Shown: positions 37,619-62,788, numbered from the stretch's first letter. The stretch is DNA of 64,000 bases from an uncultured Alphaproteobacteria bacterium (GCA_902563305.1 CACEWP010000001.1:207886-271885), one strand, 5' to 3'. Notes: generated by a model not told the origin, from the letters alone. Numbers and translations: made by a program.

Positions 37619-38887
37619 ATGAGAGCAAAGTTTTTTTTAATTATATCTTTTTGTATAATTTTTTCTATTTCTTCTATTGTTGAAACTAGGGAGTTGTCAA
37701 TTCAACAACTTGAAGAGAGAAAAAAAGCTGATCTTGAAAGAAAAAAAGCAAGAGAGAAACGTGGAAAGAAAAATTTTCAAAAAAAAATTTCAATTACAAC
37801 GGATGTAGTATTTATATCCAAAGAGAGAGAGGTTCCACCTGTACTCTCAAACCTTGACCCTATTCTTGAAGACGAGGGTTTTTATGGTGTAAAATTAGCA
37901 ATCGAAGATAATCTCACAACTGGTAGATTTCTTGGCCACGATTACAAAGCAGAATTCCACAGAGTATTGTTGGATGAAGACATAGGAATTGAATTTAAAA
38001 AGCTTATGAAAAAAGGAAAAAAGTTTTTTGTAGTAGATTTTAATCATAACGAACTTCTCTCATTAATGAAAATCCCTGGAATTGAAGAAGTTTTAATTTT
38101 TAATACTAGAGCAAAAAGCGATTCTTTGAGGAATGAAGAGTGCAGAAAAAATTTTTTTCATATTGCACCTAGTTATTCTATTTTATCTGATGCATTAACA
38201 CAGTATTTAGTAAAAAAAAAATGGAAAAAATGGTTTTTGGTTACTGGACCTAAAAAAAACGATCGACTTTATGCTGATGCATTGAAAAAATCTGCAAAAA
38301 AATTTAATATAAAAATTAAAGATCAGAAAACTTGGGACTTTACGTCTGACTTGAGAAGAACAGCAGGAAAAGAAGTTCCAATTTTTACGAAAACTTCAAA
38401 CTATGATGTTCTTGTTGTTGCCGATGAGGCAGGAGAATTTGGAGAATATCTAGCTTACAGAACATGGGACCCAAGACCGGTTGTTGGAACGCAAGGTCTT
38501 AAACCAAACTCTTGGCATCGTACACATGAGCAGTGGGGGGCAACACAAATGCAAAATAGGTTTAGAAGAGAAAGTGGTAGATGGATGACAGAAGTTGACT
38601 ATCATTCGTGGACAGCTGTAAGAGCTATTGGAGAAAGTATTACTAGAACGAATAGTAATAATGTAAGAGATGTTCAAGAATATATGCTAGGTGATAAATT
38701 TGGTTTAGGTGCCTATAAAGGTGTGAAAGTTTCTTTTAGATCTTGGAATGGCCAATTAAGGCAGCCTGTTCTATTAGCTGCGCCAAGGTCTATGGTATCA
38801 GTTTCACCTCAAGATGGATATATTCATCCTGTTAGTGAACTAGATACCTTAGGGAAAGATAGGCCCGAATCTTCTTGTAAATTCTAA
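37619..38887 (+). CDS. Periplasmic binding protein of the PQQ-dehydrogenase-associated ABC system (PedA1/LutA-like)
   Basis: It has a signal peptide, a Lys/Glu-rich ~35-aa spacer, then a type-I (LivJ-like) binding-protein body. It is first of four genes with the same order as pedA1-pedA2-pedB-pedC. ATG 37619 was chosen over GTG 37610. Confidence 0.7.
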   Translation: MRAKFFLIISFCIIFSISSIVETRELSIQQLEERKKADLERKKAREKRGKKNFQKKISITTDVVFISKEREVPPVLSNLDPILEDEGFYGVKLAIEDNLTTGRFLGHDYKAEFHRVLLDEDIGIEFKKLMKKGKKFFVVDFNHNELLSLMKIPGIEEVLIFNTRAKSDSLRNEECRKNFFHIAPSYSILSDALTQYLVKKKWKKWFLVTGPKKNDRLYADALKKSAKKFNIKIKDQKTWDFTSDLRRTAGKEVPIFTKTSNYDVLVVADEAGEFGEYLAYRTWDPRPVVGTQGLKPNSWHRTHEQWGATQMQNRFRRESGRWMTEVDYHSWTAVRAIGESITRTNSNNVRDVQEYMLGDKFGLGAYKGVKVSFRSWNGQLRQPVLLAAPRSMVSVSPQDGYIHPVSELDTLGKDRPESSCKF

Positions 38888-38909
38888 AATTTTTAATACA
38901 TTATATTTT

Positions 38910-39875
38910 ATGAAAATTATTTTTATCTTATTATTTTATTCATTTTTTAATTTTAATTTCGTCAAAGCTAATTTGGCCTATATTACTAACGAAAAAGACA
39001 ATACAGTAAGCGTAATTGATATAAAAAAGAAAAAAGTTATTAAAACAGTTAAAGTTGGACAAAGACCCAGAGGGATTATAATGTCCAATGATGGCAAACT
39101 AGTTCTCATTTGTGCTTCTGACGATGACAGAGTTGAAGTAAGAGATGCAGAAACATTAAAACTAAAGTATCATTTACCTTCAGGACCTGATCCAGAACTT
39201 TTTATTTTATCACCTGAAAATGATATTCTTTACATTGCCAATGAAGACGACGCAATGGTAACTGTGGTAGATATGAATGATAAAATGATTATTGATGATA
39301 TACCTGTTGGTGTTGAGCCAGAAGGTATGGGGCTTACAAACAATGGTAAGGTTTTAGTTAACACTTCTGAAACCACAAATATGGCACACTTTATAAATAC
39401 TGATACCCTTGAAATCACAGAAAACGTATTAGTAGATGCAAGACCAAGGGTAGCTATGTTTACCCCAGACAACAAAGAGGTTTGGGTTTCTGCTGAGATT
39501 GGAGGGACAGTCAAAGTAATTAGCCCGAGTAATCATGAGGTTACTCATACAATAGGGTTCGAAATACCCGGAGTAAATGAGGAAAGTATTCAACCCGTTG
39601 GTGTTAGACATACTGATGATGGAAAATATACATTTGTAGCTTTAGGTCCTGCAAATAGAATCGCGGTTATTGATCAAAAAACTAAAAAAGTTATCAAATA
39701 TTTGCTAGTTGGTCAGAGAGTGTGGCAACTTGCATTTACTCCTGATCAGAAAACACTACTGAGTACAAACGGAGTTAGTAATGATGTTTCTATTATTAAT
39801 GTAGATAAACTTAAAGTTGAAAAGTCAGTCAAAGTTGGAAGATTTCCTTGGGGAGTTGTTATAAGTCCTAACTAG
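38910..39875 (+). CDS. Secreted YVTN-repeat beta-propeller protein (PedA2/LutB-like)
   Basis: It has a signal peptide and repeated ~40-aa YVTN-type blades (YITNEKDNTVSVID..., YIANEDDAMVTVVD..., LLSTNGVSNDVSIIN...). Confidence 0.75.
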   Translation: MKIIFILLFYSFFNFNFVKANLAYITNEKDNTVSVIDIKKKKVIKTVKVGQRPRGIIMSNDGKLVLICASDDDRVEVRDAETLKLKYHLPSGPDPELFILSPENDILYIANEDDAMVTVVDMNDKMIIDDIPVGVEPEGMGLTNNGKVLVNTSETTNMAHFINTDTLEITENVLVDARPRVAMFTPDNKEVWVSAEIGGTVKVISPSNHEVTHTIGFEIPGVNEESIQPVGVRHTDDGKYTFVALGPANRIAVIDQKTKKVIKYLLVGQRVWQLAFTPDQKTLLSTNGVSNDVSIINVDKLKVEKSVKVGRFPWGVVISPN

Positions 39876-39901
39876 AAAGGCACTATTAACTAACATGCAC
39901 A

Positions 39902-40627
39902 ATGACCGTTGCGCTAGAAATTAAAAATGTTTCTCATAATTTTGGAAAATTCACTGCTCTTGATGATGTAAGTCTAAATATAAATTCTGGTGATTTCACA
40001 GTTTTGTTAGGGTTGAACGGTGCTGGAAAAACAACCCTTTACTCGTTAATCACAAGACTTTACAATAACAATTCCGGAACGATTAAAATATATGGATTCG
40101 ATGTCAGAGAGAATCCTGTTAATGCACTTAAAAATATCGGAGTTGTTTTTCAGCAACCTACCTTGGATCTTGATCTGAGCGTTAAAGAAAACCTTCAGTA
40201 CCACTCTTCACTTCATGGTATAAGTTCTGAAGAGGCAAACAAAAGAATTGACAACGAAATAGGTAGAATAAAATTAGATGAGAAGATTAAAAGTAAAGTA
40301 AGGTCATTATCAGGCGGTCAGAGACGAAGAGTTGAAATTGCAAGATCACTCCTTCACAAACCCAAGCTATTACTTCTGGATGAACCAACTGTTGGTCTAG
40401 ACATAGGCTCAAGGCAAATGATCTTAGATCACGTAAAAAGTTTATGTAAAAAAAATAATTTAGCAGTTCTATGGGCTACACATTTAATTGATGAGATTGA
40501 CAAGGGTGAAAAGGTGATAGTTATCCATAAAGGAAGTGTTATTGAATCTGGGGATGTTTCAAAAATAGTTAAAAAAACAAAAACTAAGAATATCAGAGAT
40601 GCATTTAATAAATTAGTGGGAATTTAA
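39902..40627 (+). CDS. ABC transporter ATP-binding protein (PedB/LutE-like)
   Basis: It has Walker A GLNGAGKTT, signature LSGGQRRRVEIA and Walker B LLLLDEPT. Length is 241 aa. Confidence 0.9.
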   Translation: MTVALEIKNVSHNFGKFTALDDVSLNINSGDFTVLLGLNGAGKTTLYSLITRLYNNNSGTIKIYGFDVRENPVNALKNIGVVFQQPTLDLDLSVKENLQYHSSLHGISSEEANKRIDNEIGRIKLDEKIKSKVRSLSGGQRRRVEIARSLLHKPKLLLLDEPTVGLDIGSRQMILDHVKSLCKKNNLAVLWATHLIDEIDKGEKVIVIHKGSVIESGDVSKIVKKTKTKNIRDAFNKLVGI

Positions 40628-40632
40628 AAAAT

Positions 40633-41436
40633 ATGGAACTTATAATATTTGCAAGATGTTTTAAGGGCATCGTTTTAAGAGAAGCTTTAAGATTTATTCA
40701 TCAGAAAGAACGCTTTTTTTCTGCTTTAGTTAGACCATTAGTTTGGTTAGGAATTTTTGCTGCTGGATTTAGATCCGTTCTAGGTGTTGCGATTATTCCT
40801 CCTTATGAAACTTATATTCCTTACGAGGTCTACATTGCTCCAGGGTTAATAGCTATGATTCAATTGTTTAATGGAATGCAAAGTTCTCTTTCCATGGTTT
40901 ATGACAGAGAAATGGGTAGTATGAAAACCATGCTGGTTAGTCCTATTCCTAGATGGTTCTTATTGATTTCAAAATTACTTGCTGGAGTTTTTGTTTCCAT
41001 ACTTCAAGTTTATGCCTTTTTATTAATAGCATCTATTTGGGATATCATCCCACCAATTTCTGGATACTTTACAATTCTTCCTGCTCTTATAGTGTCAGGT
41101 TTAATGCTTGGTTCTTTAGGGATGTTTCTATCTTCAGCAATAAAACAATTAGAAAATTTTGCTGGTGTTATGAATTTTGTTATTTTTCCAATGTTCTTTG
41201 CCTCATCTGCTTTATACCCATTATGGAAGATTGAAGAAACTAGCGAATGGTTGTATTATGTTTGTTTTTATAACCCATTTACTTACGCAGTTGAATCAAT
41301 CAGATTTTCTCTTTATTCTCAGGTTAATATAGAGTATACAATTGGTATTTTAGTTTTTACGTTAATATTTTTATTTTTATCAATTCTAGGATATGATCCT
41401 GCAAGGGGAAATTTACAGAAAAAGGGAGGAAAATAA
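40633..41436 (+). CDS. ABC-2 type permease (PedC/LutF-like)
   Basis: 267 aa with 6 TM segments and ABC-2 family features. It lies directly downstream of the ATPase. Confidence 0.85.
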   Translation: MELIIFARCFKGIVLREALRFIHQKERFFSALVRPLVWLGIFAAGFRSVLGVAIIPPYETYIPYEVYIAPGLIAMIQLFNGMQSSLSMVYDREMGSMKTMLVSPIPRWFLLISKLLAGVFVSILQVYAFLLIASIWDIIPPISGYFTILPALIVSGLMLGSLGMFLSSAIKQLENFAGVMNFVIFPMFFASSALYPLWKIEETSEWLYYVCFYNPFTYAVESIRFSLYSQVNIEYTIGILVFTLIFLFLSILGYDPARGNLQKKGGK

Positions 41437-41438
41437 TT

Positions 41439-41858
41439 ATGAAAAATTTTTTAGTTTCTTTATTTACAATTCTCTTAATAAGTCCTTTTGTTTATTCTAA
41501 GGGTGATCTTTCAATAAGATCAAAGAAACTTGAATTAAAACTCGGTTCTGACAAAAGTGATTACGATATGTCCCAAAAAATTTTTAAAATGGAAACCGGA
41601 AAAGCATACAGACTAGAGATATCAAGTATGGGTTTTAAAGAGTATGAATTGGAAGCAGAAGAGTTCTTCCGAAATATTTGGATACGTTCGATTGAGATTG
41701 AAGGTGTTGAATTAGATGCTCCAATTATCAACGAAATCGAATTTGAGAGGGAAGGTGAAATAGAAATAAAGTTTGTACCGATAAGACCTGGAGAATATGA
41801 TTTTGAAATTGAAAGATTACAAAACAAAGGGATGGTAGGAAAGTTTATAGTTGAATGA
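41439..41858 (+). CDS. Secreted, highly acidic cupredoxin-like protein lacking the Cys/His copper ligands
   Basis: It has a signal peptide (MKNFLVSLFTILLISPFVYS). The C-terminus PGEYDFEIERLQNKGMVGKFIV follows the cupredoxin pattern PGxYxFxC....H...GMxGxxxV, with Cys replaced by Glu and His replaced by Asn/Gln/Lys. I counted about 21 Glu and 6 Asp in a mature protein of about 119 aa. Its start is 3 nt after the permease stop. Confidence 0.55.
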   Translation: MKNFLVSLFTILLISPFVYSKGDLSIRSKKLELKLGSDKSDYDMSQKIFKMETGKAYRLEISSMGFKEYELEAEEFFRNIWIRSIEIEGVELDAPIINEIEFEREGEIEIKFVPIRPGEYDFEIERLQNKGMVGKFIVE

Positions 41859-41879
41859 TTTATTAACCTAGGAGGAAAA

Positions 41880-42533
41880 ATGAAAGTCTCAAATTATTTC
41901 AAAATTTTTTTATGCCTTATGATAGTTACTGTCATAAACTTTACAACAAGCGCTTTTTCACAGGAAAAGTCTCCAAAAAAGTGGCCATGTGACCAAGTTT
42001 ATAATCCAAAATTAAACTTAAGCGCGATTTGGCAGGGTCCGTCAATTGAAGATTCTCTTAAAGATTGGTGGAAACATGATGATGTAATTGAATATGTAAA
42101 TCTTCTTGCTGAACCAACTCTTAACGAGAAAGAAGGTACAGCAATTATAGAGGATTTTGCAAAAAAATATACATACTTGGGAGTTATTAAAAAAGCTGAA
42201 CAAAAAGATAAACTGGTTTTTCTATTTGCAGGTTTATATCAAAAGGCCAAGGAAAGAAGAGCAAGACAGTATAGAGGGATAGTAAAATTTGTTGATCGTC
42301 AAGAAAGTCTAAGAAAAGCAATTGGGGAATCATCTAAATTAATAAGAAAATATAGAAAAGAAAAGGTAGATATTAAAAGTCCAAAATTTATGGCTGCTAA
42401 TTCTCAACTAGAGTGGAATACTAGAGTTTTTGACCAAAGAACACGCTTGACCGAGTATGTATGCGAAGAACCAGTTTTTAATACTCAAAGATTAGGGTAT
42501 CAGGCTAGAAAAATACTAACTTATCTAAAGTAA
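41880..42533 (+). CDS. Secreted protein of unknown function (predicted helical, two Cys)
   Basis: It has a signal peptide ending SAFS/QE. I recognise no motif. It is co-directional with the preceding gene, 22 nt downstream, with SD AGGAGGAAAAATG. Confidence 0.5.
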   Translation: MKVSNYFKIFLCLMIVTVINFTTSAFSQEKSPKKWPCDQVYNPKLNLSAIWQGPSIEDSLKDWWKHDDVIEYVNLLAEPTLNEKEGTAIIEDFAKKYTYLGVIKKAEQKDKLVFLFAGLYQKAKERRARQYRGIVKFVDRQESLRKAIGESSKLIRKYRKEKVDIKSPKFMAANSQLEWNTRVFDQRTRLTEYVCEEPVFNTQRLGYQARKILTYLK

Positions 42534-42664: not shown

Positions 42665-42742
42665 ATGGCTTGGACAAAACCAATGATTTCTGAGATCTCT
42701 GTAGGTCTAGAAATCAATTCATACGCTTGCGCTGAGAAGTAA
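42665..42742 (+). CDS. pqqA: PQQ precursor peptide PqqA (too short for the ORF track)
   Basis: My own translation is MAWTKPMISEISVGLEINSYACAEK, with the conserved W-x-x-P and the E-x-x-x-Y cross-link motif (EINSY). SD AAGGAG lies 7 nt upstream. It is immediately 5' of pqqB. Confidence 0.9.
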   Translation: MAWTKPMISEISVGLEINSYACAEK

Positions 42743-42761
42743 TCTTAGCAATAGCAATTGC

Positions 42762-42789
42762 CCCCTTAAGTCTAATTAGATTTAAGGGG
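42762..42789 (+). promoter_or_regulatory. Stem-loop between pqqA and pqqB (transcript stabiliser or attenuator)
   Basis: CCCCTTAAG-(10 nt)-TTTAAGGGG forms a 9-bp stem including one G.U pair. It starts 20 nt after the pqqA stop and ends 19 nt before the pqqB ATG. No U-run follows, so it is not a canonical terminator. Confidence 0.5.
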
Positions 42790-42807
42790 AGCATTTGGTG
42801 TATATAT

Positions 42808-43740
42808 ATGTTAAAAGTTTTGATTTTAGGTTCAGCAGCTGGTGGAGGTTCTCCTCAGTGGAACTGTAATAGTTCTGTAAGCAGAGCGGTTAGAGAAGGC
42901 AAATCGGGAACATCTCCAAGAACACAATCATCTATTGCTGTTACTTCAAATGATGAAGAATGGATTTTATTTAATGCATCACCTGATCTTGGTTCACAAA
43001 TTCTCAAAAATCACCAAATGCACCCAAAAAAAGATTTAAGACATAGTCCAATTAGCGGAGTGGTTTTGACCAATGGTGATGTTGACCACGTAGCAGGACT
43101 TCTTACTTTAAGGGAAAGACAGAATTTATCTGTGTATGCTCACAATAGAGTTCATTCTGTTTTAAAGGATAATTCTATATTTAATGTTTTAAACCCTGAT
43201 TATGTTGAAAGAAGAGAGTTGCGAATGAATGAGAAATTTGAATTAAAAGATAAAGAGGGTAAGGGGTTAGGTTTAGAGATTGAAGCATTCGAAGTTCCTG
43301 GAAAAATTGCTTTGTGGTTAGAAGATGAATCTAAAGGAGATGACTTTGGCTCTGAGGATGGTGATACCATTGGTTTGAAAATTTGTTCTAAAAATGATAA
43401 TGAATTTTTCTATTATATTCCAGCCTGTGCCAAGATGACAAAGAAATTAGCTGATAAAATAAGGGATTCAGAGGTTGTATTATTTGATGGAACATTATGG
43501 CAAAATGACGAGATGGCTTCTAGTAAAGTTGGAGAAAAAACAGGACAAAGAATGGGACATATGAACAACTCTGGAGATGATGGATCTATTGAAGCATTTA
43601 AAAAATTAAATGTAAAAAGGAAAATTTTTATACATATTAATACTACCAACCCAATTCTTCTTGAAGATTCGAGAGAGAGAAAAATTGTTGAACAGAATGG
43701 TTGGGAGGTTAGTTACGATGGAATGGAGATAAAAATATGA
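42808..43740 (+). CDS. pqqB: PQQ biosynthesis protein B (metallo-beta-lactamase fold)
   Basis: The N-terminus LILGSAAGGGSPQWNC and the HVAG motif region are present. Length is 310 aa. Confidence 0.95.
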   Translation: MLKVLILGSAAGGGSPQWNCNSSVSRAVREGKSGTSPRTQSSIAVTSNDEEWILFNASPDLGSQILKNHQMHPKKDLRHSPISGVVLTNGDVDHVAGLLTLRERQNLSVYAHNRVHSVLKDNSIFNVLNPDYVERRELRMNEKFELKDKEGKGLGLEIEAFEVPGKIALWLEDESKGDDFGSEDGDTIGLKICSKNDNEFFYYIPACAKMTKKLADKIRDSEVVLFDGTLWQNDEMASSKVGEKTGQRMGHMNNSGDDGSIEAFKKLNVKRKIFIHINTTNPILLEDSRERKIVEQNGWEVSYDGMEIKI

Positions 43741-44522
43741 ATAACATTGCTCGAAAAGAATTAGATAATGATATGTTGATGACGAAAAACGAGTTTGAAC
43801 ACAGGTTAAGAGAAATTGGAAACGAGAGATATCATGATAATTGTAGATTTCATCATCTCCTACATAGCGGTAAGCTTAACAGAGGACAGGTACAGGCTTG
43901 GGCAATTAACAGATATTATTATCAAATAAACATATCAATTAAAGATTCGGCTCTTATGTCTAGAATTAAAGATCCTTCACTACGAAGAGTTTGGATAAAA
44001 AGAATTTTGGATCATGACGGAAGAAAAGGAGACGAGGGAGGTATTGAACGTTGGTATAAACTAACGGACGGGTTGGATTTAGATAGAAATTATGTGAAGT
44101 CAACAGATGGAGTCTTACCTGCAACTAAATTTGCTGTAGATGCGTATGTCACATTTGTCAGAGAAAAATCGCTTTTAGAAGGAGTTACCTCCTCTCTCAC
44201 AGAACTCTTTGCACCAAAAATCCATAAAGAGAGAATAGTAGGTATGCTTGAAAACTATGACTTTATAAATGATATAACAATGGCTTATTTCAAAAAAAGA
44301 GTTGATCAGGCTACTGACGACGCCGATTTTGTGTTAGACTATGCAATCAAGAATGCAAAAACAAGAGAGGAACAAAATTCTGTGTGTGATGCATTGAAAT
44401 TTAAAACGGATGTTTTGTGGGTAATGCAAGACGCATTATATCACTCGTACGTAAATGGTCATGTTCCTCCAGGGGCATTCTTGCCAGAGGATTTTGATGA
44501 CAGATATACTGAAGATAAATGA
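43737..44522 (+). CDS. pqqC: Pyrroloquinoline-quinone synthase
   Basis: 261 aa with the typical RYHDNCRFHHLLHSGKLNRGQVQAWAINRYYYQ region. Confidence 0.95.
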   Translation: MNNIARKELDNDMLMTKNEFEHRLREIGNERYHDNCRFHHLLHSGKLNRGQVQAWAINRYYYQINISIKDSALMSRIKDPSLRRVWIKRILDHDGRKGDEGGIERWYKLTDGLDLDRNYVKSTDGVLPATKFAVDAYVTFVREKSLLEGVTSSLTELFAPKIHKERIVGMLENYDFINDITMAYFKKRVDQATDDADFVLDYAIKNAKTREEQNSVCDALKFKTDVLWVMQDALYHSYVNGHVPPGAFLPEDFDDRYTEDK

Positions 44523-44784
44523 AAATGTTAAACCTAAATTTCCAAAACACGTTAAATTTAGGCATAACAAAGCCAGAGATGAATGGGTTATTCTTGCACC
44601 TGAGAGACTTGTTAAACTGGATGATATTGCAGTTGAAATCCTCAAGTTGGTTGATGGGAAAGTCTCAGTCGAAGATATTTCCATTGAATTATCCAAAAAA
44701 TTTAATGCTCCAAAAGAGGTTATAATGAGTGATGTTATAAATATGTTACAAGAGCTATCAGATAAAGGATTTATTGAAGAATGA
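44497..44784 (+). CDS. pqqD: PqqA-binding chaperone PqqD
   Basis: It contains the PqqD/RRE-like sequence DEWVILAPERLVKLDDIAVEILKLVDGKVSVEDI. The start was set at the internal Met (MTDILK...), which gives a 26-nt overlap with pqqC. The exact start is uncertain. Confidence 0.85.
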   Translation: MTDILKINENVKPKFPKHVKFRHNKARDEWVILAPERLVKLDDIAVEILKLVDGKVSVEDISIELSKKFNAPKEVIMSDVINMLQELSDKGFIEE

Positions 44785-45938
44785 AGAGCGATAATATAAC
44801 TTCCAAGGGAGGCAATTTGAAAACAGCTTCACAGCATGGTATTCAAGCACCTCTTGCTCTTTTAGCAGAGTTATCTCACAGATGTCCACTTCAATGTCCG
44901 TATTGCTCAAATCCAGTGCAATTAGAAAAAAAAACAGGAGAGTTAACAACAGATGAATGGAGGTCAGTGATTGATCAAGCTGTAGAGATGGGCATGCATC
45001 AAATCCATCTATCTGGAGGAGAGCCAACCGTTAGACACGATTTAGAGGAGATTGTTGAGCATTGTACAAAAAAAGGTCTCTATACAAATTTAATTACATC
45101 TGGAGTTTTGTTAAATCCAGACAGACTGAAGAAATTAGAAAAACTAGGTTTAGAGCATGTTCAACTTTCATTTCAAGACACCGAAAAAGAAAATGCAGAT
45201 AGGATTGGTGGATATAAGGGGGGGCATGAGAAGAAATTAGAAGTAGCTAAATGGGTTAGAGATGTTGAATTGCCACTTACCTGCAATTGTGTGGTTCATA
45301 GGCAAAATATTGACAACCTTGAAAATTTTATTCAAATGGCACTTGACCTTGATGCAGAAAGGGTCGAGATAGCACAAGTTCAATATTACGGATGGGCTTT
45401 AAAGAATAGAGCAGCATTCATTCCAACACCAGAACAACTTGATCATGCAACAGAGATTGTAGAAAAGGCAAGAGTCGATTTAAAGGGTAAGCTTGTTATT
45501 GACTATGTTATTCCTGATTACTACGCCAAGCATCCTAAAAATTGTATGGGCGGTTGGGGCAGAAGATTTTTGAATATGAATCCAAAGGGAGATGTGTTAC
45601 CTTGTCATGCTGCAGAAACAATACCACATCTTAAATTTGATAATGTAAGGGAACGAAGCTTAAAATGGATTTGGGAAAACTCTGAAGCATTTAATTTATA
45701 CAGAGGAACCGATTGGATGCCTGATCCATGTAAATCCTGTGATAGAAAAGAAATAGATTGGGGAGGTTGTAGATGTCAGGCAATGGCATTAACTGGTGAT
45801 GCTAAAAACACAGATCCAGCATGTTCAATATCTCCACTTCACAGTGAAATTTTTTCAATGGCTGCAGATGAGGCAAGAAGGGCTCCTCCAGAGTTTATTT
45901 ACAGAAGATATGGTGTTAGATTTAATTCACCTGTTTGA
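44781..45938 (+). CDS. pqqE: Radical SAM/SPASM enzyme PqqE
   Basis: It has the CPLQCPYC radical-SAM cluster motif and C-terminal SPASM cysteines (CKSCDRKEIDWGGCRC). Length is 385 aa. Confidence 0.95.
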   Translation: MKSDNITSKGGNLKTASQHGIQAPLALLAELSHRCPLQCPYCSNPVQLEKKTGELTTDEWRSVIDQAVEMGMHQIHLSGGEPTVRHDLEEIVEHCTKKGLYTNLITSGVLLNPDRLKKLEKLGLEHVQLSFQDTEKENADRIGGYKGGHEKKLEVAKWVRDVELPLTCNCVVHRQNIDNLENFIQMALDLDAERVEIAQVQYYGWALKNRAAFIPTPEQLDHATEIVEKARVDLKGKLVIDYVIPDYYAKHPKNCMGGWGRRFLNMNPKGDVLPCHAAETIPHLKFDNVRERSLKWIWENSEAFNLYRGTDWMPDPCKSCDRKEIDWGGCRCQAMALTGDAKNTDPACSISPLHSEIFSMAADEARRAPPEFIYRRYGVRFNSPV

Positions 45939-46043
45939 AGAATATATAGATTAAATTTGATTGATAGGCATTATCAATTGTGATTGACAAATCATTATTT
46001 AATAACTAAGTATAATAAATTAAATTTAATAAAAGGACATAAA

Positions 46044-46475
46044 ATGAAAAAAATTTTTTTAACTCTGTTATTTGTATTATTTTCAGGAAGCGCATTTTCA
46101 GCTGATGTTACAATAAAAATGCTTAATAAAAACAAAGAGACAAAAAAAAGAATGGTTTATAGCCAAGAACTAGTTAAAATTGATGCTGGAAAGTCCATTG
46201 AATGGGTTGCAACAGATAAAGGACATAACGTTGAAATGCTTGCTGGTCCAGATGGATATGAACTTCCAAAGAAGACTAAACTCGGTGATAACGTTACTAT
46301 TAAATTTTCAGTTCCTGGAATTTATCTTTATCAATGTTCTCCTCATGCTGCTATGGGTATGATAGGTTTGGTTGTAGTAGGGGGTGATACTTCTAACATG
46401 GAAGTAATAAAAAAGAAAAAACTGACAGGTAGTAAATCAAAAAAGAAAAGAGATAAATTACTTAGTGAAATTTAA
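46044..46475 (+). CDS. Pseudoazurin (type 1 blue copper protein)
   Basis: It has the signal peptide MKKIFLTLLFVLFSGSAFSA. The copper ligands are in pseudoazurin spacing: GHNVE ... YQCSPHAAMGMIG (His, Cys, His, Met). The start was moved from the TTG at 45984 to the ATG with SD AAAAGGA. Confidence 0.85.
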   Translation: MKKIFLTLLFVLFSGSAFSADVTIKMLNKNKETKKRMVYSQELVKIDAGKSIEWVATDKGHNVEMLAGPDGYELPKKTKLGDNVTIKFSVPGIYLYQCSPHAAMGMIGLVVVGGDTSNMEVIKKKKLTGSKSKKKRDKLLSEI

Positions 46476-46500
46476 TTTTAATTTATTAAAAATATTTTAA

Positions 46501-46534
46501 AGCTCAATTAATTTTTAATTGGGCTTTTTTTTTA
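46501..46534 (+). terminator. Rho-independent terminator after pseudoazurin, between convergent genes
   Basis: AGCTCAATT-(7 nt)-AATTGGGCT forms a 9-bp stem with one G.U pair, followed by a run of 9 T. Confidence 0.7.
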
Positions 46535-46537
46535 AAT

Positions 46538-47413
46538 TTATTTAACTGGAGCTCGACCTTTTATTAGAGCGTCGGTGGTACTATCGATTTTTTTTCGCTT
46601 CCCAGGTCGGAGTGTTAATGTTGGAATACTGTGCTTGACTAATATTTTATCAATTTCTTTTTGATTTTCTTTAATAAATTTATTAAGTTTTTTTTTCCAA
46701 TCAGTTTCACCGTCTCTTACTCCCATTGTTGTGTAATAGTCCATCCTTCCCCAACCTTGATCTGTTGTTTCTAGTGGGATAAATGTATAATTACTTTCAT
46801 CAAGCCCTTTTTTTTTAAGGTAATAGACTGCTATTGGACCTGACATGAAAACGATATCTACCAAACCATCCATTAAGTCCTCTATCATTGATTCACCTAT
46901 TACAGCTTTCCTAGGGTCAAAAGTAAGGTTGTAAGGCCTAACTCTACTCATAAGATTATAGCGTTGAAGAACAAAAGTTGGAGGTGTTCCGGCTTGCACG
47001 CCAATACTTAGGTTTGCGAGCTGAGGATGATCTGGTCTATCAACGTCTATACCATTATCTTTTAAAAATATCATTCCATATGACCACCTCATGTATGGAA
47101 CGGTATTTAAAACTAATTCATTGCCAGCGGTAATACCAATAATGATGTCGCACTTTTTCTTATTGAGGGTATTTCTGACATAACCTATGACTTGAGGAAA
47201 AAATTCATATACAACAGGTATATTAAGCTTTTTACCCAAAAGTTCAGCTATATCATTCTCGAAACCTTCACCATCTTCGTTTGAGAAAGGTAGGTTTGAG
47301 GGATCTGCGCAGACGCGTAAATTTTTGGTGTCAACAGCTTCAATAGCAGATTCTCTTGCATTGGCTTCTATATTTAAAACCAAAGCAAGGGTTATAACAA
47401 ATTTAAAGAGCAT
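46538..47413 (-). CDS. xoxJ: Periplasmic binding-protein-like XoxJ/MoxJ
   Basis: 291 aa with a signal peptide and a family-3 binding-protein fold pattern (LRVCADPSNLPFSNE). It is third in the xoxF-xoxG-xoxJ order. Confidence 0.85.
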   Translation of the reverse strand: MLFKFVITLALVLNIEANARESAIEAVDTKNLRVCADPSNLPFSNEDGEGFENDIAELLGKKLNIPVVYEFFPQVIGYVRNTLNKKKCDIIIGITAGNELVLNTVPYMRWSYGMIFLKDNGIDVDRPDHPQLANLSIGVQAGTPPTFVLQRYNLMSRVRPYNLTFDPRKAVIGESMIEDLMDGLVDIVFMSGPIAVYYLKKKGLDESNYTFIPLETTDQGWGRMDYYTTMGVRDGETDWKKKLNKFIKENQKEIDKILVKHSIPTLTLRPGKRKKIDSTTDALIKGRAPVK

Positions 47414-47432
47414 TATAATTTAAATATTATTA

Positions 47433-48047
47433 TTATTCTGCTTCTTTAAATTTTGGAAGTTTTGGGAGTCTTACTCCTCTTCTGATTTTACCTTCAGCCC
47501 TCGCCTTAACATATCGATACATGTCTTCAACGTGAGGAGCAACGTTTGTATTAGCTCCAAAGGCTGGCATAACATTACCTTTTTGAGCACCTTCTGCTTC
47601 ACCTCTTCCATTCATTATTACATTGAAAAAATCATCATAAGATAAACCTTCTTGAAGAGATACCATTAGTGATGGGGCGTATGTACTCCCCATTGCATCT
47701 GGTCCGTGACAAACATGACATTCCGCATGATAGGCTCTCCACCCTTTGTAGGTAGCGAAATCCATCCAACCATATTGCATTTCTACTAGGCTGTCATCAC
47801 CTCTACATTCTTCAAGATCTTCTTCGGATACCATGTCAACAGCTTTTCCCTTGCAATTGATTTGGATAAGGTTTAGGGGTGTACCATCTTCTTTCAAACG
47901 ATCACCTTTACCATATTTTATAACATATGTTGGGTTATCATCTTTGTCGAAAGCAGGTTCAACTGCTTCTGGAGTAGGAATAGCTTTTGCACTAAATCCG
48001 ACTACAAGAGAAGCTATTAGAGCATATTTGTTAAGTTTAAAGTTCAT
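47433..48047 (-). CDS. xoxG: Cytochrome c (cL-type) electron acceptor XoxG
   Basis: It has a signal peptide and a single heme motif CHVCHG. Length is 204 aa. It lies directly downstream of xoxF. Confidence 0.85.
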   Translation of the reverse strand: MNFKLNKYALIASLVVGFSAKAIPTPEAVEPAFDKDDNPTYVIKYGKGDRLKEDGTPLNLIQINCKGKAVDMVSEEDLEECRGDDSLVEMQYGWMDFATYKGWRAYHAECHVCHGPDAMGSTYAPSLMVSLQEGLSYDDFFNVIMNGRGEAEGAQKGNVMPAFGANTNVAPHVEDMYRYVKARAEGKIRRGVRLPKLPKFKEAE

Positions 48048-48191: not shown

Positions 48192-50024
48192 CTACGGTAA
48201 AGCGAAGACAGTTAATACGCCACCTAATGCAGTGTGGTTACTTAGTGCAGAGTATGCACCAACAGCACCTAAACCTGCAGTTGGATCAGTAAGACCAGCA
48301 GCTAGACCAATTCCAGCCCATCCACCAACACCTGATAGGATACCAACATATTGCTTACCTTTGTGTTTGTAAGACATGAAGTTACCAATAATACCAGAAG
48401 GTGTTTTGAACGAGAATAGTTCTTTACCAGTTTTACTTTCAACAGCTTTAGCGTATCCTTCTAGCGTACCGTAGAAAGTAATTCCACCAGCTGTAGCCAT
48501 AGCACCACTCCATACAGAGAAAGGCTCAGGGTTAGACCATACGATCTTACCTTTGTCAGCATCCCATGCAATGAAGTTACCTAGGTGAGTTCCGCCTGGA
48601 GCTGGGTACATTGATAATGTAGCACCAACATAAGCGTTACCAGCTACGTAGTCAACCTTGAATGGTTCATAATCCATACAAACGTGGTTTGTTGGAACCA
48701 TGAACAATCCAGACATTCTATCGTAAGCAGCAGGCTGCTGGTCTTTAGAACCTAGAGCCGCTGGGCAGATGTTAGTAGTGTTAACATCTTCACCTTGGTG
48801 TGCAGTTGAATATCTGTCAACAACTTGTGGACGACCTGTTTTCATATCAACGTGAGTTGCCCAGTTCACAGCTGGATCGTACTTCTCTGCTACTAATAGC
48901 TCACCAGAAGCTCTATCCATTGTGTAAGCAAAACCGTTTCTGTCAAAGTGTACAAGTGTTTGACGGTTTTTACCTTTTACTTTCATGTCAACAAGAATCA
49001 TCTCGTTAACACCGTCGTAATCCCACTCATCGTAAGGAGTCATTTGATATAACCATTTAGCCATACCATTGTCTGGGTTACGAGCGTTAATAGTCATAGA
49101 CCATTTGTTGTCACCAGGACGAACAACTGGATTCCATGTTGATGGGTTACCTGTACCGTAGTACAAAGTGTTTAATTTAGAGTCATATCCGTAGAAACCC
49201 CAAATTGAACCACCACCAATTTTCCATGCGTCACCAGGCCAAGTTTTCAATGAAGAATCTTTACCAATTGGTTTTAACATAGAAGTAGTTTTGTTTGGAT
49301 CAACTAGCATGTCCTTATCTGGACCCATGCTGTAAGCTCTCCAAAGTCTCTTACCACTGTTGATATCGTACTGTGTCCAGTTACATCTCACACCGAATTC
49401 AGCACCAGAACAACCAACACCTACCATGTCTTTGATAATGAATGGTTGACCTGAACCAGTAGAAGCAGAGACACCATATTTACCAGTACCAGCGTGTAGA
49501 TTAGTTGTAATCCACTTCTCTTTACCAGTTTTAGCGTCTAACGCAATTACTGAAGTATCAGCAGCATGTAGAACGATAGTACCATTTGGGTGATAGTTAA
49601 CACCACGGTTCACGTTATCACAGCACATAACTGAGATAACTCTGTCCATAGTTTCACCACCTGGATACTTACCACCTTTTACAGGGTTGTATTTCCACAT
49701 GATTCTTTGGTTATCATTAAGATCTAAAGCGTACACAATGTTTGGAATTGCAGTGTGAACATACATTACATCTCCAATTACTAGTGGACCACCTTCGTGA
49801 CCTCTAAGTACACCAGTAGAGAAAGTCCAAGCGACTTTCAAGCTACCTACGTTACTTTTATTGATTTGATCAAGTGTAGAGTAACGATGTCCAGCGTAAT
49901 CACCAGACTGTTGTACCCACTGACTTGGATCTTTCATCATTTTTTCTAGCTTAGAGTTAGCACTTACAGCGAATGGAAGAGCTAAAGCAGCAGAAGCAAT
50001 GATGCTTTTTTTCAAAATACTCAT
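48192..50024 (-). CDS. xoxF: Lanthanide-dependent PQQ methanol/alcohol dehydrogenase XoxF
   Basis: It is a PQQ eight-bladed propeller with the vicinal disulfide CC ([10 protein letters not shown]). EWDYDGVNE carries the extra Asp (D-Y-D) that marks Ln-dependent XoxF, where Ca-dependent MxaF has D-Y-A. The signal peptide is [22 protein letters not shown] and the SD is AAAGGAGAA. The start is set at the 24th codon of the track ORF. Confidence 0.95.
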
Positions 50025-50169
50025 AAAGTATTTCTCCTTTATTACGATTAATATTTGGGCGAAAGCCCGGTTATTGATTGGAACCAAAACCATAACAAAA
50101 ATCGTTAGGTTATTTGATTTCCTCCCATGGTTATATTATGTCTGAATACCATAAATTCAAGGTAAAAAT

Positions 50170-50315: not shown

Positions 50316-50465
50316 TAGATATCAAGTTTTGTTCAGAAAATTAAAAAAATCAATAATTACAATTACTTACAAGGCATAAAAAAATTGTATTTTCACCGAT
50401 TTTTCAATCATAATTAATTTTTTTTTTTGTTAAAATTTGTAACATTAATGTATATATTTATCTTT

Positions 50466-51296
50466 ATGAAAAAATCTTTGATTATAAAGGTATTCTATCT
50501 GTTTTTGGCATTTAACTATTCATTGATTAATGCAAAAGATTCCAGCCCACCCCCTGTCACATGGGAAAAAAATGTAAAACAGCTTTTGTATGATGATGAC
50601 GTTATAATTAGAGATGGTTCTGGTCTCATGGAGCTTGTAACACCCTACAGAGCTTTAGATGCAGCAATAGTTCCCGTAACTGTAAATTTTACAGAAAATC
50701 AAACAGATAAAGACTTTGTTAAATATTTAACACTAGTAGTTGACGAAAATCCCTCTCCAATAGTAGGAAAATTTAAGTTCTCTCCTAAAATTGGAAATGC
50801 GAGTTTTACCACAAGAATCCGCATTGATAAATACACATACGTAAGAGCGATTGCTGAAAAAAATAATGGTGAAAAATTTATGATATCAAACTTTGTGAAA
50901 GCAGCAGGTGGTTGCTCAGCACCCAGTCTCGCTGATATGGATTCTGTCATGGCCAGATTAGGAAAAATGAAAATGAAGTTTATTGAAACCAGTAAATCCT
51001 CTAATTCATTAAATAAAGCTAAATTTTTGATTAGCCATCCTAATTTTTCTGGTTTGCAATTTAATCAGTTAACTAGATCTGAGATTCCTGCTCACTTTAT
51101 TAATTACATCAAGATTGAGCAAGATGGTAAATTGATTTTTGAAGCTACGCCAGACATCTCACTATCTGAAGATCCTTCATTTACATTTAATTATATCAAC
51201 AGTGGTGGACCTCTTATTGTGAGTGTTAAGGATAGTGATGGCCAAACTTTTTCAGATTCATTCTCATACTCGCGAATTACCGCTAGTAAAGACTAA
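50466..51296 (+). CDS. Periplasmic SoxY-SoxZ fusion protein (quinoprotein dehydrogenase-associated SoxYZ-like carrier)
   Basis: It has a signal peptide. The N-terminal half follows the SoxY pattern and ends in the carrier-cysteine motif VKAAGGCSAP. The C-terminal half follows the SoxZ pattern (ISHPNFSGLQ...IPAHFINYIKIEQDGKLIFEA...SLSEDPSFTF). The start is set at ATG 50466. Confidence 0.75.
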   Translation: MKKSLIIKVFYLFLAFNYSLINAKDSSPPPVTWEKNVKQLLYDDDVIIRDGSGLMELVTPYRALDAAIVPVTVNFTENQTDKDFVKYLTLVVDENPSPIVGKFKFSPKIGNASFTTRIRIDKYTYVRAIAEKNNGEKFMISNFVKAAGGCSAPSLADMDSVMARLGKMKMKFIETSKSSNSLNKAKFLISHPNFSGLQFNQLTRSEIPAHFINYIKIEQDGKLIFEATPDISLSEDPSFTFNYINSGGPLIVSVKDSDGQTFSDSFSYSRITASKD

Positions 51297-51646
51297 AAGC
51301 ATTCCAACTCAGAAGCAGCCTGTGCTCTGAATAATTTCATCATTCTTTCTTTTGATAAGCCTACACTTTTAAATGCTTCTTCTCTTGGACTCGCACCTTC
51401 CCAGAGACGAGCGATAGCCTCGGCCTGAGCATATTCTTCATAACTAATTCTCTTTGCGATTTCATCAATAGCACAGGAGCATTTAGCCATGAAATCTCTA
51501 TTAGTAGCATTTGAGCTCATGCACGCAAAAACAAATTCTGATCTTGCAAGTGTTGGAAAATCATTTGATTTGGAGGTGTTTGCAAAAAAACTTGTAGTAA
51601 AGATTACCGCACATATAAGTATTGAAGTAAATTTAATTTTAATCAT
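51293..51646 (-). CDS. Small exported Cys-containing helical protein, unknown function
   Basis: 117 aa with a signal peptide (MIKIKFTSILICAVIFTTSFFA). The mature part has five Cys: ACM, CSC (two) and a C-terminal ECF... counted by eye as four positions clustered in three places. Its ATG overlaps the stop of the upstream gene by 4 nt, which suggests translational coupling. Confidence 0.5.
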   Translation of the reverse strand: MIKIKFTSILICAVIFTTSFFANTSKSNDFPTLARSEFVFACMSSNATNRDFMAKCSCAIDEIAKRISYEEYAQAEAIARLWEGASPREEAFKSVGLSKERMMKLFRAQAASELECF

Positions 51647-52476
51647 GATTTATTTTGTTCCTTTCTACTTTTATATTCTTCTCTTAATTCTTTATTTGTC
51701 CTAATTCCTTGAAATTGTAGGGTTTCTTTAACCATATCATCCGGATCTTCTAAATCCTTTATAAAAGTTTGAATCTTATAAATGTATCCAGGAATCTCGT
51801 CTGACATTATAATAACAAATTTCTTAGTTTTATATCTAGAGACTCTGTTTTTTAGTTCAGTTTTTGTGAAAGGCTGAAAGGATATTTTTTTAGCTAAAAT
51901 ATTTTTATTATTATATTCAATGTTTATGTCCTCTATTTCAGTTGCTGCAATAGTATGCCTGATTCTACTCCTAAAAAATAAAGCGTTACCACCTGTCAAT
52001 CTTTGCATATCTCTAGAATCTCTCTCAAAAAACAACATAAAAACAGGATTGCCTTTTGCTCCAATTTGAGGAGGAAATCTTACTTTATTTCTACCCTTAA
52101 GGTATCTAAAGGTTATATGCTTGGTATTATCCTTTTCGACCTTTACTATATTAAGAACTACATTTCCTATAAAATTATCTTCACGTGTGGATTCTTTTTG
52201 AAATTTGTAAAATATTCTAGAAGGCTCGTTGATTGATTTTAAATGTTCATCAATAAATAAAGCAATATTGGCGCTTGACATTTCTTTTATTAATTCAAGT
52301 TTGAATTCTTCCGTACCCCACTTTATTCTTTTCTCTTCGGCATCTTCGGCCTTAGAAAAATCTTCTGAATTTTCAATATGATCGTTTGAAAAAGAAAAAG
52401 AAAATATAAGACTTACTAGAAAAAAAAGAAAGCAAGAGATATGAAATAAAGAATTTGATTTGTTATTAAATTTCAT
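51643..52476 (-). CDS. Exported or membrane-anchored protein, unknown function
   Basis: The start is set at the internal Met MKFNNKSNSLFHISCFLFFLVSLIFSFSFS (hydrophobic signal or anchor), because the longer ORF would cross the divergent gene's start. I recognise no motif. Confidence 0.45.
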   Translation of the reverse strand: MKFNNKSNSLFHISCFLFFLVSLIFSFSFSNDHIENSEDFSKAEDAEEKRIKWGTEEFKLELIKEMSSANIALFIDEHLKSINEPSRIFYKFQKESTREDNFIGNVVLNIVKVEKDNTKHITFRYLKGRNKVRFPPQIGAKGNPVFMLFFERDSRDMQRLTGGNALFFRSRIRHTIAATEIEDINIEYNNKNILAKKISFQPFTKTELKNRVSRYKTKKFVIIMSDEIPGYIYKIQTFIKDLEDPDDMVKETLQFQGIRTNKELREEYKSRKEQNKS

Positions 52477-52528
52477 TGCGCTATATTTATGGTCTATATT
52501 TATATAATTTTCAACCAAGATTTTGTTT

Positions 52529-53023
52529 ATGTCAAATAAATACAAAAATATTTCAGTAATTTCAACTGGTTCATGGGTTCCCTCAAACCTTAGTTATCCA
52601 AAAAATTCAAAGGGAACTTACGAGGTGCAAATTAAAGAATTAACATTAATGGCCTCAATCGGTATTCATGAACATGAAAAAATAAAAAAACAAAGAGTAA
52701 GTATATCACTGTCAATTAAAGTTAATGATAATATTGGCAGTGTTAATGAAGATATAGATAATTTTGTTTCATATGAAAAAGTTATAAAAAGTTTAAAGAA
52801 AATTATTTCTAAAGGTCATATAGAATTATTAGAAACTCTTGGTGAAAAAATATCCAAAATGTGTTTTGAAGATGAACGAATTTTGTCGATTTGGATGAAA
52901 TTAGAAAAACTAGATGTTTTTCCTGACACAAAAAGTGTTGGAATTGAGATTGTTAGGGATAAATTAGATTATACTAGAAAAAAGGCAAATAAAAGCAACA
53001 TTGAAAAGATAAAGAAAAAATAA
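52529..53023 (+). CDS. Dihydroneopterin aldolase-family protein (pterin branch of H4MPT biosynthesis)
   Basis: It has the FolB-like core (LMASIGIHEHEKIKKQRVSISLSI...VSYEKV...ELLETLGEKI). It is first gene of a co-directional cofactor-biosynthesis string. Confidence 0.7.
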   Translation: MSNKYKNISVISTGSWVPSNLSYPKNSKGTYEVQIKELTLMASIGIHEHEKIKKQRVSISLSIKVNDNIGSVNEDIDNFVSYEKVIKSLKKIISKGHIELLETLGEKISKMCFEDERILSIWMKLEKLDVFPDTKSVGIEIVRDKLDYTRKKANKSNIEKIKKK

Positions 53024-53042
53024 TTCCATAAATATTTGTATT

Positions 53043-53654
53043 ATGTGGATTATAAAGATAGGTGGAAGTTGGATAGATAAAGTTGAGTTAAACGAACTTG
53101 TAACACATCTTAGTAAACACAGTAAATTTGAAAACATTATAATAGTAGTTGGTGGAGGATGTTTTGCAGATGCAGTAAGACGAGTCTATACAAGTAATCA
53201 AATGTCTGAAAAAACCGGTCATTTTTTAGCCCTGAAAGGTACCGAAATGTTTGCACACATTATAAAAGAAATTAATAAAAATATCTCATTAATAAATAAT
53301 ATTGAATCACTAAAAGTTTTAGATCGAAAATTAAAAGTTTGGATGCCGTCTAGAGTTCTAAAGGATGAACCCTCATTTATAAATTCATGGGAATCAACTT
53401 CAGACTCTGTTGCTGCTTGGCTTCACACAAAAGTAAAATCAAAGGGACTTGTTTTCGTAAAATCTTTAATTTTAAAAAAAAAAAAATATCAATTAAAGAA
53501 CTTACAAGACACAAATGTTCTCGATAAAAATGTAGATAAATATCTTTATAAACAAAAAAATATCAAGATTGTTGGACCAGAGATTATTGATTTATTTAGG
53601 AATGCTAAAGATTGGAAGAAATTTTATTATGATCTTAATGAGGTTAAACTTTGA
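53043..53654 (+). CDS. Amino-acid-kinase-fold protein of the H4MPT/methanofuran cluster (MfnE-like)
   Basis: It has the N-terminal IIKIGGS and VVGGG motifs of the Asp/Glu/uridylate kinase fold. Length is 203 aa. The MfnE assignment comes from family membership and context only. Confidence 0.55.
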   Translation: MWIIKIGGSWIDKVELNELVTHLSKHSKFENIIIVVGGGCFADAVRRVYTSNQMSEKTGHFLALKGTEMFAHIIKEINKNISLINNIESLKVLDRKLKVWMPSRVLKDEPSFINSWESTSDSVAAWLHTKVKSKGLVFVKSLILKKKKYQLKNLQDTNVLDKNVDKYLYKQKNIKIVGPEIIDLFRNAKDWKKFYYDLNEVKL

Positions 53655-58786: not shown

Positions 58787-58800
58787 TAGAAAAAGTGATT

Positions 58801-59496: not shown

Positions 59497-59532
59497 AATT
59501 TATTTGCTTTTAAAAAATGAGAACAACCTTGA

Positions 59533-59568
59533 AAGCCATCCGCCATCATTAGCTTTATTTGATGGCTT
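59533..59568. terminator. Inverted repeat between the convergent HisA-like and fae genes (possible terminator)
   Basis: AAGCCATC-(20 nt)-GATGGCTT forms an 8-bp perfect stem. The loop is long and no U-run follows directly, so the call is weak. Confidence 0.3.
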
Positions 59569-59583
59569 CATGTCGGATGTATT

Positions 59584-60093: not shown

Positions 60094-60135
60094 ATTTCCT
60101 CCTTATAAGGTTACTATAGTGTCCTTTACAAACTT

Positions 60136-61829: not shown

Positions 61830-61830
61830 T

Positions 61831-62787: not shown

Positions 62788-62788
62788 T

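Follow-up and report, generated by a model that had tools for sequence, protein, structure and literature searches.

A lut/ped-type gene cluster beside pqq and xoxF in a streamlined marine alphaproteobacterium, probably a lanthanide-uptake operon

Layout of the six-gene block

The window analyzed here is a 64,000-nucleotide stretch of DNA from an uncultured Alphaproteobacteria bacterium (GCA_902563305.1, CACEWP010000001.1:207886-271885) with a G+C content of ~30%. At positions 37619-42533 it carries six genes, all on the + strand, that resemble the clusters named lut in Methylorubrum extorquens AM1 and ped in Pseudomonas putida KT2440. Gene 1 (37619-38887) codes for a periplasmic substrate-binding protein of the LutA/PedA1 type, gene 2 (38910-39875) for a secreted YVTN beta-propeller of the LutB/PedA2 type, gene 3 (39902-40627) for an ATP-binding cassette (ABC) ATPase of the LutE/PedB type and gene 4 (40633-41436) for an ABC-2 permease of the LutF/PedC type. 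They are followed by gene 5 (41439-41858), which codes for a secreted acidic protein with a predicted beta-sandwich fold from a lut-cluster-associated family of weak cupredoxin resemblance, and by gene 6 (41880-42533), coding for an exported protein with predicted helices that is placed in the LutG family through the synteny of its relatives with lutF-type permease genes. The six genes probably form a single operon, in the order lutA-lutB-lutE-lutF-[acidic beta-sandwich protein]-lutG, that serves lanthanide uptake in a streamlined marine alphaproteobacterium. We give the operon and the lut-type importer, taken together, a probability of roughly 0.78.

The packing of the block is operon-like. 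The intergenic gaps measure 22, 26, 5, 2 and 21 nucleotides and no terminator-like site was found on the + strand within the block. The strongest promoter-like match of the region lies directly 5' of gene 1, the frequency of such matches being no higher than chance. The open reading frame (ORF) of gene 1 opens at a GTG codon (37610), and initiation at the ATG codon at 37619 gives a protein of 422 amino acids, the same length as its orthologues in related genomes. A preliminary description of this DNA had already reported co-directional, tightly packed genes, and the ORFs bear this out. The gaps of 3 and 22 nucleotides that it gave after the permease gene were coordinate differences, each one too high, and should read 2 and 21.

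The four core genes

Genes 1-4 are members of four ABC families associated with pyrroloquinoline quinone (PQQ)-dependent dehydrogenases (PedA1A2BC/LutABEF). Each scored above the curated NCBIfam cut-off of its family: gene 1 against TIGR03863, PQQ_ABC_bind (473.6 bits, cut-off 413.6), gene 2 against TIGR03866, PQQ_ABC_repeats (480.6 bits, cut-off 287.3), gene 3 against TIGR03864 (342.9 bits, cut-off 302.25) and gene 4 against TIGR03861, phenyl_ABC_PedC (400.7 bits, cut-off 241.35). The ped/lut identity initially proposed for the module is thereby upheld for all four genes. Gene 1 reached only 39.7 bits against the generic LivJ-type Pfam family Peripla_BP_6, and is thus closer to PedA1/LutA than to generic binding proteins. 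Gene 2 is likewise a genuine member of its family and no generic YVTN protein. Gene 4 also matches Pfam ABC2_membrane (1.7e-28), and the translated gene 3 shows recognizable Walker A, signature and Walker B motifs.

The pairing of an importer-type binding protein with an ABC-2 permease had been pointed out as mechanistically unexplained. It is shared by the entire family and not specific to this locus. Beyond these families, the next-closest relatives of the ATPase and the permease are the DrrA/DrrB exporters (202 bits for TIGR01188 and 121.5 bits for TIGR01247, respectively). A Lys/Glu/Arg-rich low-complexity stretch occupies residues ~25-60 of gene 1 (37700-37790), between the signal peptide and the TIGR03863 match, which starts at residue 79.

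Gene 6 and the LutG family

Gene 6 codes for a protein of 217 amino acids (isoelectric point, pI, 9.6) in which an N-terminal hydrophobic, signal-like segment can be read. It has no match in Pfam, NCBIfam or the PDB chains. An exhaustive search of representative sequences gathered a family of 359 representative clusters at E ≤ 0.001, whose members typically have ~205-215 residues and share 22-45% identity. The signal peptide is divergent and the invariant residues are W35, C37, Q39 (WPCxQ), W51, R127, Q141, R182, R187 and C195, i.e. two cysteines within the pattern WPCxQ ... CExP and no carboxylate. None of 37 family members compared with Pfam and NCBIfam fell into a curated family. The family profile found nothing real in the PDB, with no LanD chain at E ≤ 10 and no lanmodulin or lanpepsy chain. 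The AlphaFold2 model of gene 6 (predicted local distance difference test, pLDDT, 84) is all-helical with two helices of ~50 residues each. A fold search of the PDB with this model returned generic long-helix matches only (E ≥ 0.18, template modelling score, TM, < 0.5) and no fold was assigned.

The genomic context of the family was examined in a genome scan with one genome per species, which found at least 513 loci. The 80 best were retained and their block content was scored by local phmmer with the window proteins. They span Bradyrhizobium, Xanthobacteraceae, Acetobacteraceae, Geminicoccus, Rhizobiaceae and Phyllobacterium, with a bias towards Bradyrhizobium and Xanthobacteraceae due to the 10-sequence subset that served as query. 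In 54 of these 80 loci the gene-6 member directly follows the binding protein, propeller, ATPase and permease genes in exactly this order. The remaining loci mostly contain gene 5 or present partial or truncated versions of the block, which went undetected upstream of the gene-6 member in six cases, three of them on short contigs. The gene xoxJ lies at most 3 kb downstream of the gene-6 member in 63/80 loci.

Two published clusters connect this family to lutG. In Bradyrhizobium sp. BWA-3-5 (L008) the order is TonB receptor, histidine kinase, response regulator, esterase, binding protein, propeller, ATPase, permease and gene-6 homologue. This equals the layout published for Bradyrhizobium, lutH ... 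frmB, lutA, lutB, lutE, lutF, lutG with consecutive locus tags (PMC12628762 supplement), and puts the gene-6 homologue at the lutG position. In Sinorhizobium meliloti, a tblastn search of pSymB with gene 6 gave a single match, a 213-residue 'hypothetical protein' encoded four genes from xoxF. Its location is that of SMb20169, which was published as the best hit of AM1 LutG in this species (PMC12628762). Since the family follows the permease in most loci and matches the published lutG positions in both Bradyrhizobium and S. meliloti, gene 6 is assigned to the LutG family, the link being made via the published BLAST top hits in these two organisms and not via AM1 META1_1784 itself. Its synteny with the lut module is conserved, and what had been seen as an unplaceable extension of the module accompanies it in most of the 80 genomes.

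In AM1, lutG codes for an exported protein, and lanthanide-dependent growth is slowed by its loss to roughly the same degree as by that of lutA or lutB (PMC7391723). No biochemical characterization of META1p1780, lutC or lutG was found in the literature searched. LutG-family genes also occur away from lutABEF and beside xoxFGJ in some genomes (L060, L076, L082 and S. meliloti pSymB, L085, 15944-16585). These detached copies may reflect a functional tie to XoxF rather than to the transporter.

Gene 5, an acidic companion of lut clusters

Gene 5 codes for a protein of 139 amino acids that also begins with a hydrophobic signal-like segment. Among the marine relatives its mature part is near-invariant and its signal peptide drifts. 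The mature protein has a pI of 4.8, 27 Asp and Glu residues and neither His nor Cys, and all homologues examined are similarly acidic (pI 4.2-4.8). In a profile search the family amounted to at least 1,540 clusters (90% identity), the majority from Mesorhizobium, Rhizobium, Neorhizobium, Sinorhizobium and Shinella. Neither gene 5 nor any of seven family members examined reached the curated cut-off of any Pfam or NCBIfam family. The early remark that genes 5 and 6 belong to no family therefore stands for the curated libraries and fails beyond them, both being members of large families.

Homologues of gene 5 were collected by a local iterative search and by sampling the results of the family search. 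They lie directly 3' of the propeller gene in a Rhizobiaceae metagenome-assembled genome (MAG), a Proteobacteria MAG and Pseudaminobacter (L015, L053, L070), in an alphaproteobacterial MAG and Oryzibacter (L048, L075), on S. meliloti pSymB (L085; 28% identity, E 5e-18), and in a Neorhizobium-like genome and two metagenomic contigs (L086-L088). In eight independent loci the homologue stands between the propeller and ATPase genes. The slot directly 3' of the propeller gene is the lutC position in AM1, and the match to LutC is by position only. No gene-5 homologue was found at the locus of Microvirga ossetica (Methylobacteriaceae), where lutE-F-G, xoxJGF and lutB-A are present. In the marine clade gene 5 is placed behind the permease gene and not before the ATPase gene. 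This is a gene-order variant and not a new component, and the synteny of gene 5 with the lut module is conserved. The view of gene 5 as an unplaceable extension is accordingly abandoned, given the homologues inside the rhizobial lut clusters sampled and the size of the family.

Seven positions are acidic in all subgroups of the family (E32, E68, E75, E91, E101, E103 and E105). In the rhizobial homologues L015 (7665-8156), L053 (7737-8222) and L070 (7729-8226) the signal peptide is, in addition, immediately followed by 4-6 consecutive Asp. Rhizobial members also keep His/Met at alignment positions 72, 82, 93, 94 and 132, where the marine clade has Glu, Ile, Asp, Ala and Met. From these residues, the two subgroups may bind different ligands.

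Fold searches gave faint signals. The family profile matches the cupredoxin domain of copper nitrite reductase weakly (E 0.009) and two of the seven members examined match Cupredoxin_1 at E 1e-3, below the cut-off. Sequence and family-profile searches of the PDB with gene 5 returned no convincing chain and no lanmodulin, LanD or lanpepsy chain. The AlphaFold2 model, built on a shallow alignment, is a beta-sandwich of poor confidence (pLDDT 52). Some relatives carry the source names 'copper-binding protein' or 'plastocyanin'. Gene 5 would be a second periplasmic accessory, and its family is found with lut clusters in many Rhizobiales. The acidic composition devoid of His and Cys suggests binding or buffering of a hard cation, lanthanide or calcium, and not copper electron transfer.

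Outer-membrane receptor and lanmodulin

The window was searched for the partners that accompany the transporter in M. extorquens. None of its 62 ORFs of at least 150 amino acids, each scanned with Pfam or read as an obvious homologue, codes for a TonB-dependent receptor, Plug domain, TonB, ExbB/D or PepSY protein. A LutH-like receptor from Bradyrhizobium used as query found no match in the window even at E ≤ 10. The EF-hand-like motif D-x-[DN]-x-[DNS]-G...[ED] is absent from window ORFs of at least 60 amino acids, and the 26-nucleotide gap between the propeller and ATPase genes holds no ORF that could be a LanD-like gene. The preliminary statement that the 64 kb encode neither receptor nor lanmodulin is hence correct. 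Four marine relatives of the locus likewise have no linked LutH-like receptor within 10 kb of the module.

Its use as a distinguishing feature did not survive comparison. Of 81 non-marine loci, 28 have a LutH-like receptor at a distance of no more than 10 kb, and almost all of these 28 are from Bradyrhizobium; the other 53 have none at that distance. P. putida KT2440, whose genome has no LutH-type receptor homologue (PMC6839425), and S. meliloti 2011, which is reported to have no lutH homologue (PMC12628762), resemble the window in this respect. Lut clusters therefore commonly have their receptor unlinked or no receptor at all, and this locus is not special in lacking a linked one. The loci containing gene 5 are without a linked receptor (0/9 versus 28/72 for those lacking gene 5; Fisher p = 0.024, confounded by phylogeny). 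All 28 receptor-linked loci also carry a gene-6 homologue.

Comparison with known systems

The lut cluster of M. extorquens AM1 (lutABCDEFGH and lanM, META1_1778-1787) is genetically tied to lanthanide import (PMC7391723). The window shares with it the binding protein, propeller, ATPase, ABC-2 permease and exported LutG-type protein, on one strand and in the same relative order, as well as the association with xoxF and pqq. In contrast with AM1, it is devoid of the lutH receptor, lanmodulin, the LanD-like three-helix protein and the PepSY protein, and has the acidic beta-sandwich gene between lutF and lutG, whereas rhizobial homologues of this gene occupy the lutC position. The four core families are also those of pedA1A2BC in P. 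putida KT2440, around which the NCBIfam models were built. However, the ped system serves the ethanol dehydrogenase PedH and the window system adjoins XoxF.

The Bradyrhizobium lutABEFG genes show the same five-gene order A-B-E-F-G beside xoxJ but have a linked TonB receptor and no gene 5. S. meliloti pSymB has a gene-5 homologue directly after lutB, and its lutG, unlike that of the window, is detached and near xoxF. The marine gene 5 differs from its counterparts in the rhizobial clusters by its location after the permease gene and by the absence of the His/Met positions and of the poly-Asp tract.

Lanmodulin, LanD/landiscernin and lanpepsy offer another comparison, gene 5 being likewise small, secreted, strongly acidic and encoded inside a lanthanide-uptake cluster, with metal binding putative. 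LanD is a three-helix bundle of 6.8 kDa, stapled by disulfides, and its gene immediately precedes that of the ATPase (PMC11551332), whereas gene 5 is predicted to be all-beta and gene 6, with its 217 residues, is far from this size. Unlike lanmodulin, the window ORFs of at least 60 amino acids have no EF-hand-like motif, and genes 5 and 6 have no sequence match in the PDB.

Proposed function and alternative explanations

As a lanthanide-uptake operon, the locus could work as follows. The binding protein, aided by the propeller protein, would capture lanthanide species in the periplasm and hand them to the ABC-2 permease/ATPase pair, which would drive their ATP-dependent import into the cytoplasm. 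This import would be needed for the expression and function of the neighboring lanthanide- and PQQ-dependent methanol dehydrogenase XoxF. The LutG protein and the acidic gene-5 protein would act as periplasmic accessories. The substrate, the transport direction and the roles of genes 5 and 6 are those we infer, the first two by analogy with the genetics of AM1 and KT2440. In AM1, lutA, lutE and lutF mutants accumulate lanthanum in the periplasm and lose the cytoplasmic deposits (PMC7391723). In KT2440, pedA1A2BC is needed for growth at nanomolar lanthanum and the defect is rescued by high lanthanum (PMC6839425).

Several points weigh against this interpretation. The ABC-2/DrrAB-like permease and ATPase are of a fold class whose better-known members are exporters. 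The literature searched contains neither a structure nor a transport assay for a Lut/Ped transporter. A role in lanthanide-dependent growth or import is known for AM1, PA1 and KT2440 only (PMC7391723, PMC6839425), and would extend to the present locus by analogy from its genes. The names LutG for gene 6 and LutC for the position of gene 5 depend on positional or third-genome links to AM1. The invariant Trp, Cys, Gln and Arg residues of the LutG family, with no carboxylate among them, do not suggest direct lanthanide binding by gene 6, and such a basic, Arg/Trp-conserving family is an unlikely direct Ln3+ binder. The model of gene 5 is poor (pLDDT 52) and its metal site is putative.

The preliminary description had favored a minimal, receptor-independent acquisition of rare earths, in which a bare ABC module has gained two lineage-specific secreted proteins that take over from the TonB receptor and lanmodulin. 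We consider this unlikely. The emptiness of the 64 kb with regard to TonB receptor, TonB/ExbBD, PepSY and EF-hand proteins agrees with it, as does their absence within 10 kb of the module in the four relatives, and the distribution of receptors over loci with and without gene 5 provides a lead, being confounded by phylogeny. But the families of genes 5 and 6 are widespread in lut clusters of soil Alphaproteobacteria and thus not lineage-specific, and 28 loci have a gene-6 homologue as well as a linked LutH-like receptor, therefore LutG is no receptor substitute. The negative result, moreover, covers 64 kb, and the rest of the genome amounts in relatives to ~1.2-1.5 Mb. A reversed transport direction appears very improbable: the ABC-2 pair would then export, e.g., PQQ or a chelator into the periplasm, with the binding protein, propeller and LutG-family protein as periplasmic acceptors. 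The kinship of the ATPase and permease with DrrA/DrrB-type exporters and the position of the operon against pqqABCDE are in line with export, and the invariant Arg and Trp of the LutG family could suit an anionic aromatic ligand such as PQQ. Import is nevertheless what fits the lanthanum distribution in the AM1 lutA/E/F mutants (PMC7391723) and the rescue of the KT2440 pedA1A2BC defect by high lanthanum (PMC6839425), and a dedicated binding protein is an importer hallmark.

For gene 5 taken separately, a conventional blue-copper electron carrier serving XoxF/XoxG could be imagined from the weak matches to Cupredoxin_1 and to plastocyanin or copper nitrite reductase, from the source names of its relatives and from the His/Met conserved in rhizobial members. 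With neither His nor Cys in the mature marine protein, a type-1 (blue) copper site is excluded; a genuine pseudoazurin is encoded 4 kb downstream and no family match attains the curated cut-off, which makes a carrier of this kind extremely improbable. It is possible, if doubtful, that the members of the gene-5 family bind or buffer lanthanides in the periplasm and form a class not yet described. They would then take the place of lanmodulin/LanD in bacteria whose lanthanide uptake has no dedicated TonB receptor, possibly including the streamlined marine alphaproteobacteria, which may be the main source of xoxF5 expression in the ocean.

The ped/lut module, lutG and the unlinked receptor were all known and the locus itself is ordinary. 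The novelty claimed for it at the outset is not supported, because genes 5 and 6 are conserved companions of lut clusters and it is commonplace for such a cluster to have no linked receptor. What remains new is the uncharacterized gene-5 family, which, judging by its composition, could be a periplasmic metal binder.

Relatives and ecological context

Nearly all close homologues of genes 5 and 6 are from marine metagenomes, and those with a named source carry the labels 'Pelagibacteraceae bacterium TMED65', 'Rickettsiales bacterium' or 'Alphaproteobacteria bacterium'. Four relatives (L001-L004), ~80% identical and on contigs of 0.36-1.5 Mb, present the same locus gene for gene except for an extra Peripla_BP_2 gene. 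In line with the early suggestion to compare neighborhoods in related genomes, both genes downstream of the permease proved to be conserved with the lut module.

In the surface ocean, lanthanide-dependent XoxF is reported to be transcribed far more than any other methanol-oxidation enzyme (PMC11996626). A 2025 study attributed the top oceanic xoxF5 transcripts to poorly placed alphaproteobacterial MAGs 'previously classified as Rickettsiales' (PMC11996626). Going by the source labels alone, the window may belong to this highly expressing group ('Clade X', PMC11996626). The locus would gain ecological relevance if its host is indeed among the main methanol oxidizers of the ocean. A full lutABEFG core beside xoxF and pqq with no linked outer-membrane receptor is useful for the annotation of marine metagenomes, and frames the question of how picomolar lanthanides cross the outer membrane. 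Two families missing from the curated libraries, the LutG family and the acidic gene-5 family, are now defined and are both inexpensive targets for metal-binding assays.

Genomic neighborhood

The genes upstream of the six-gene operon are housekeeping genes and the operon opens a methylotrophy island of ~26 kb, in which pqqA-E and xoxJGF lie within 8 kb of it. The pqqA gene (MAWTKPMISEISVGLEINSYACAEK, 42665-42742, + strand) is a small ORF between gene 6 and pqqB that carries the E-x-x-x-Y motif and is separated from gene 6 by 131 nucleotides. Directly 3' of it, at 42743-42807, is a G+C-rich inverted repeat (GCCCCCTTAAG...TTAAGGGGAGC), which would fit a stem-loop setting the ratio of pqqA to pqqB-E transcripts. 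The genes pqqB, pqqC, pqqD and pqqE (42808-45938, + strand) were identified from their translations and, for PqqD, a Pfam match, and the syntenic genes of the relatives carry Lactamase_B_2, TENA_THI-4, PqqD and Radical_SAM/SPASM domains. They are followed by a pseudoazurin-type blue copper protein with intact His/Cys/His/Met ligands (45984-46475, + strand; Pfam Copper-bind 4.7e-15) and, on the - strand, by xoxJ (46538-47413; Pfam SBP_bac_3), xoxG (47433-48047; Pfam Cytochrome_CBB3) and xoxF (48192-50093; Pfam PQQ). The XoxF translation contains WDYDG, which we take to be the Asp (DYD) motif of the lanthanide type. The module thus does sit directly upstream of pqqABCDE and a lanthanide-type xoxF, as first described.

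In L001-L004 the extra gene, coding for a Peripla_BP_2 binding protein of siderophore/metallophore type, is located at ~15100-16010 (- strand) between the pseudoazurin gene and xoxJ. At this site (46475-46538) the window has a gap of 62 nucleotides only. A chelate-binding protein beside xoxJGF could bear on lanthanide acquisition. Soil lut/xox loci, e.g. L008 (10709-11284, - strand) and L085 (9427-9972, - strand), carry a rhodanese-like 'PQQ-dependent catabolism-associated CXXCW motif protein', none being seen in the window cluster.

Beyond xoxF, a SoxY-SoxZ fusion protein is encoded at 50427-51296 (+ strand). The same fusion stands beside xoxF in L001-L004 and in the unrelated lut/xoxF loci L086 (17360-18226) and L088 (14805-15674), which suggests a conserved link to the XoxF system. 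Three ORFs have no Pfam match at E ≤ 1e-4, one at 25571-26740 (- strand, 389 amino acids) and two, at 51293-51646 (- strand, 117 amino acids) and 51643-52545 (- strand, 300 amino acids), between the SoxYZ gene and pterin-biosynthesis genes. The remainder of the island (52523-63853) consists of genes of tetrahydromethanopterin/methanofuran-linked formaldehyde oxidation, including fae (59584-60093) and mch (61831-62787) together with FolB-like, amino-acid-kinase-like, flavoprotein, DUF6513/pterin-binding, DUF447, 4-HFC-P synthase, hydantoinase-like, ATP-grasp, His_biosynth-like and CitG-like genes.

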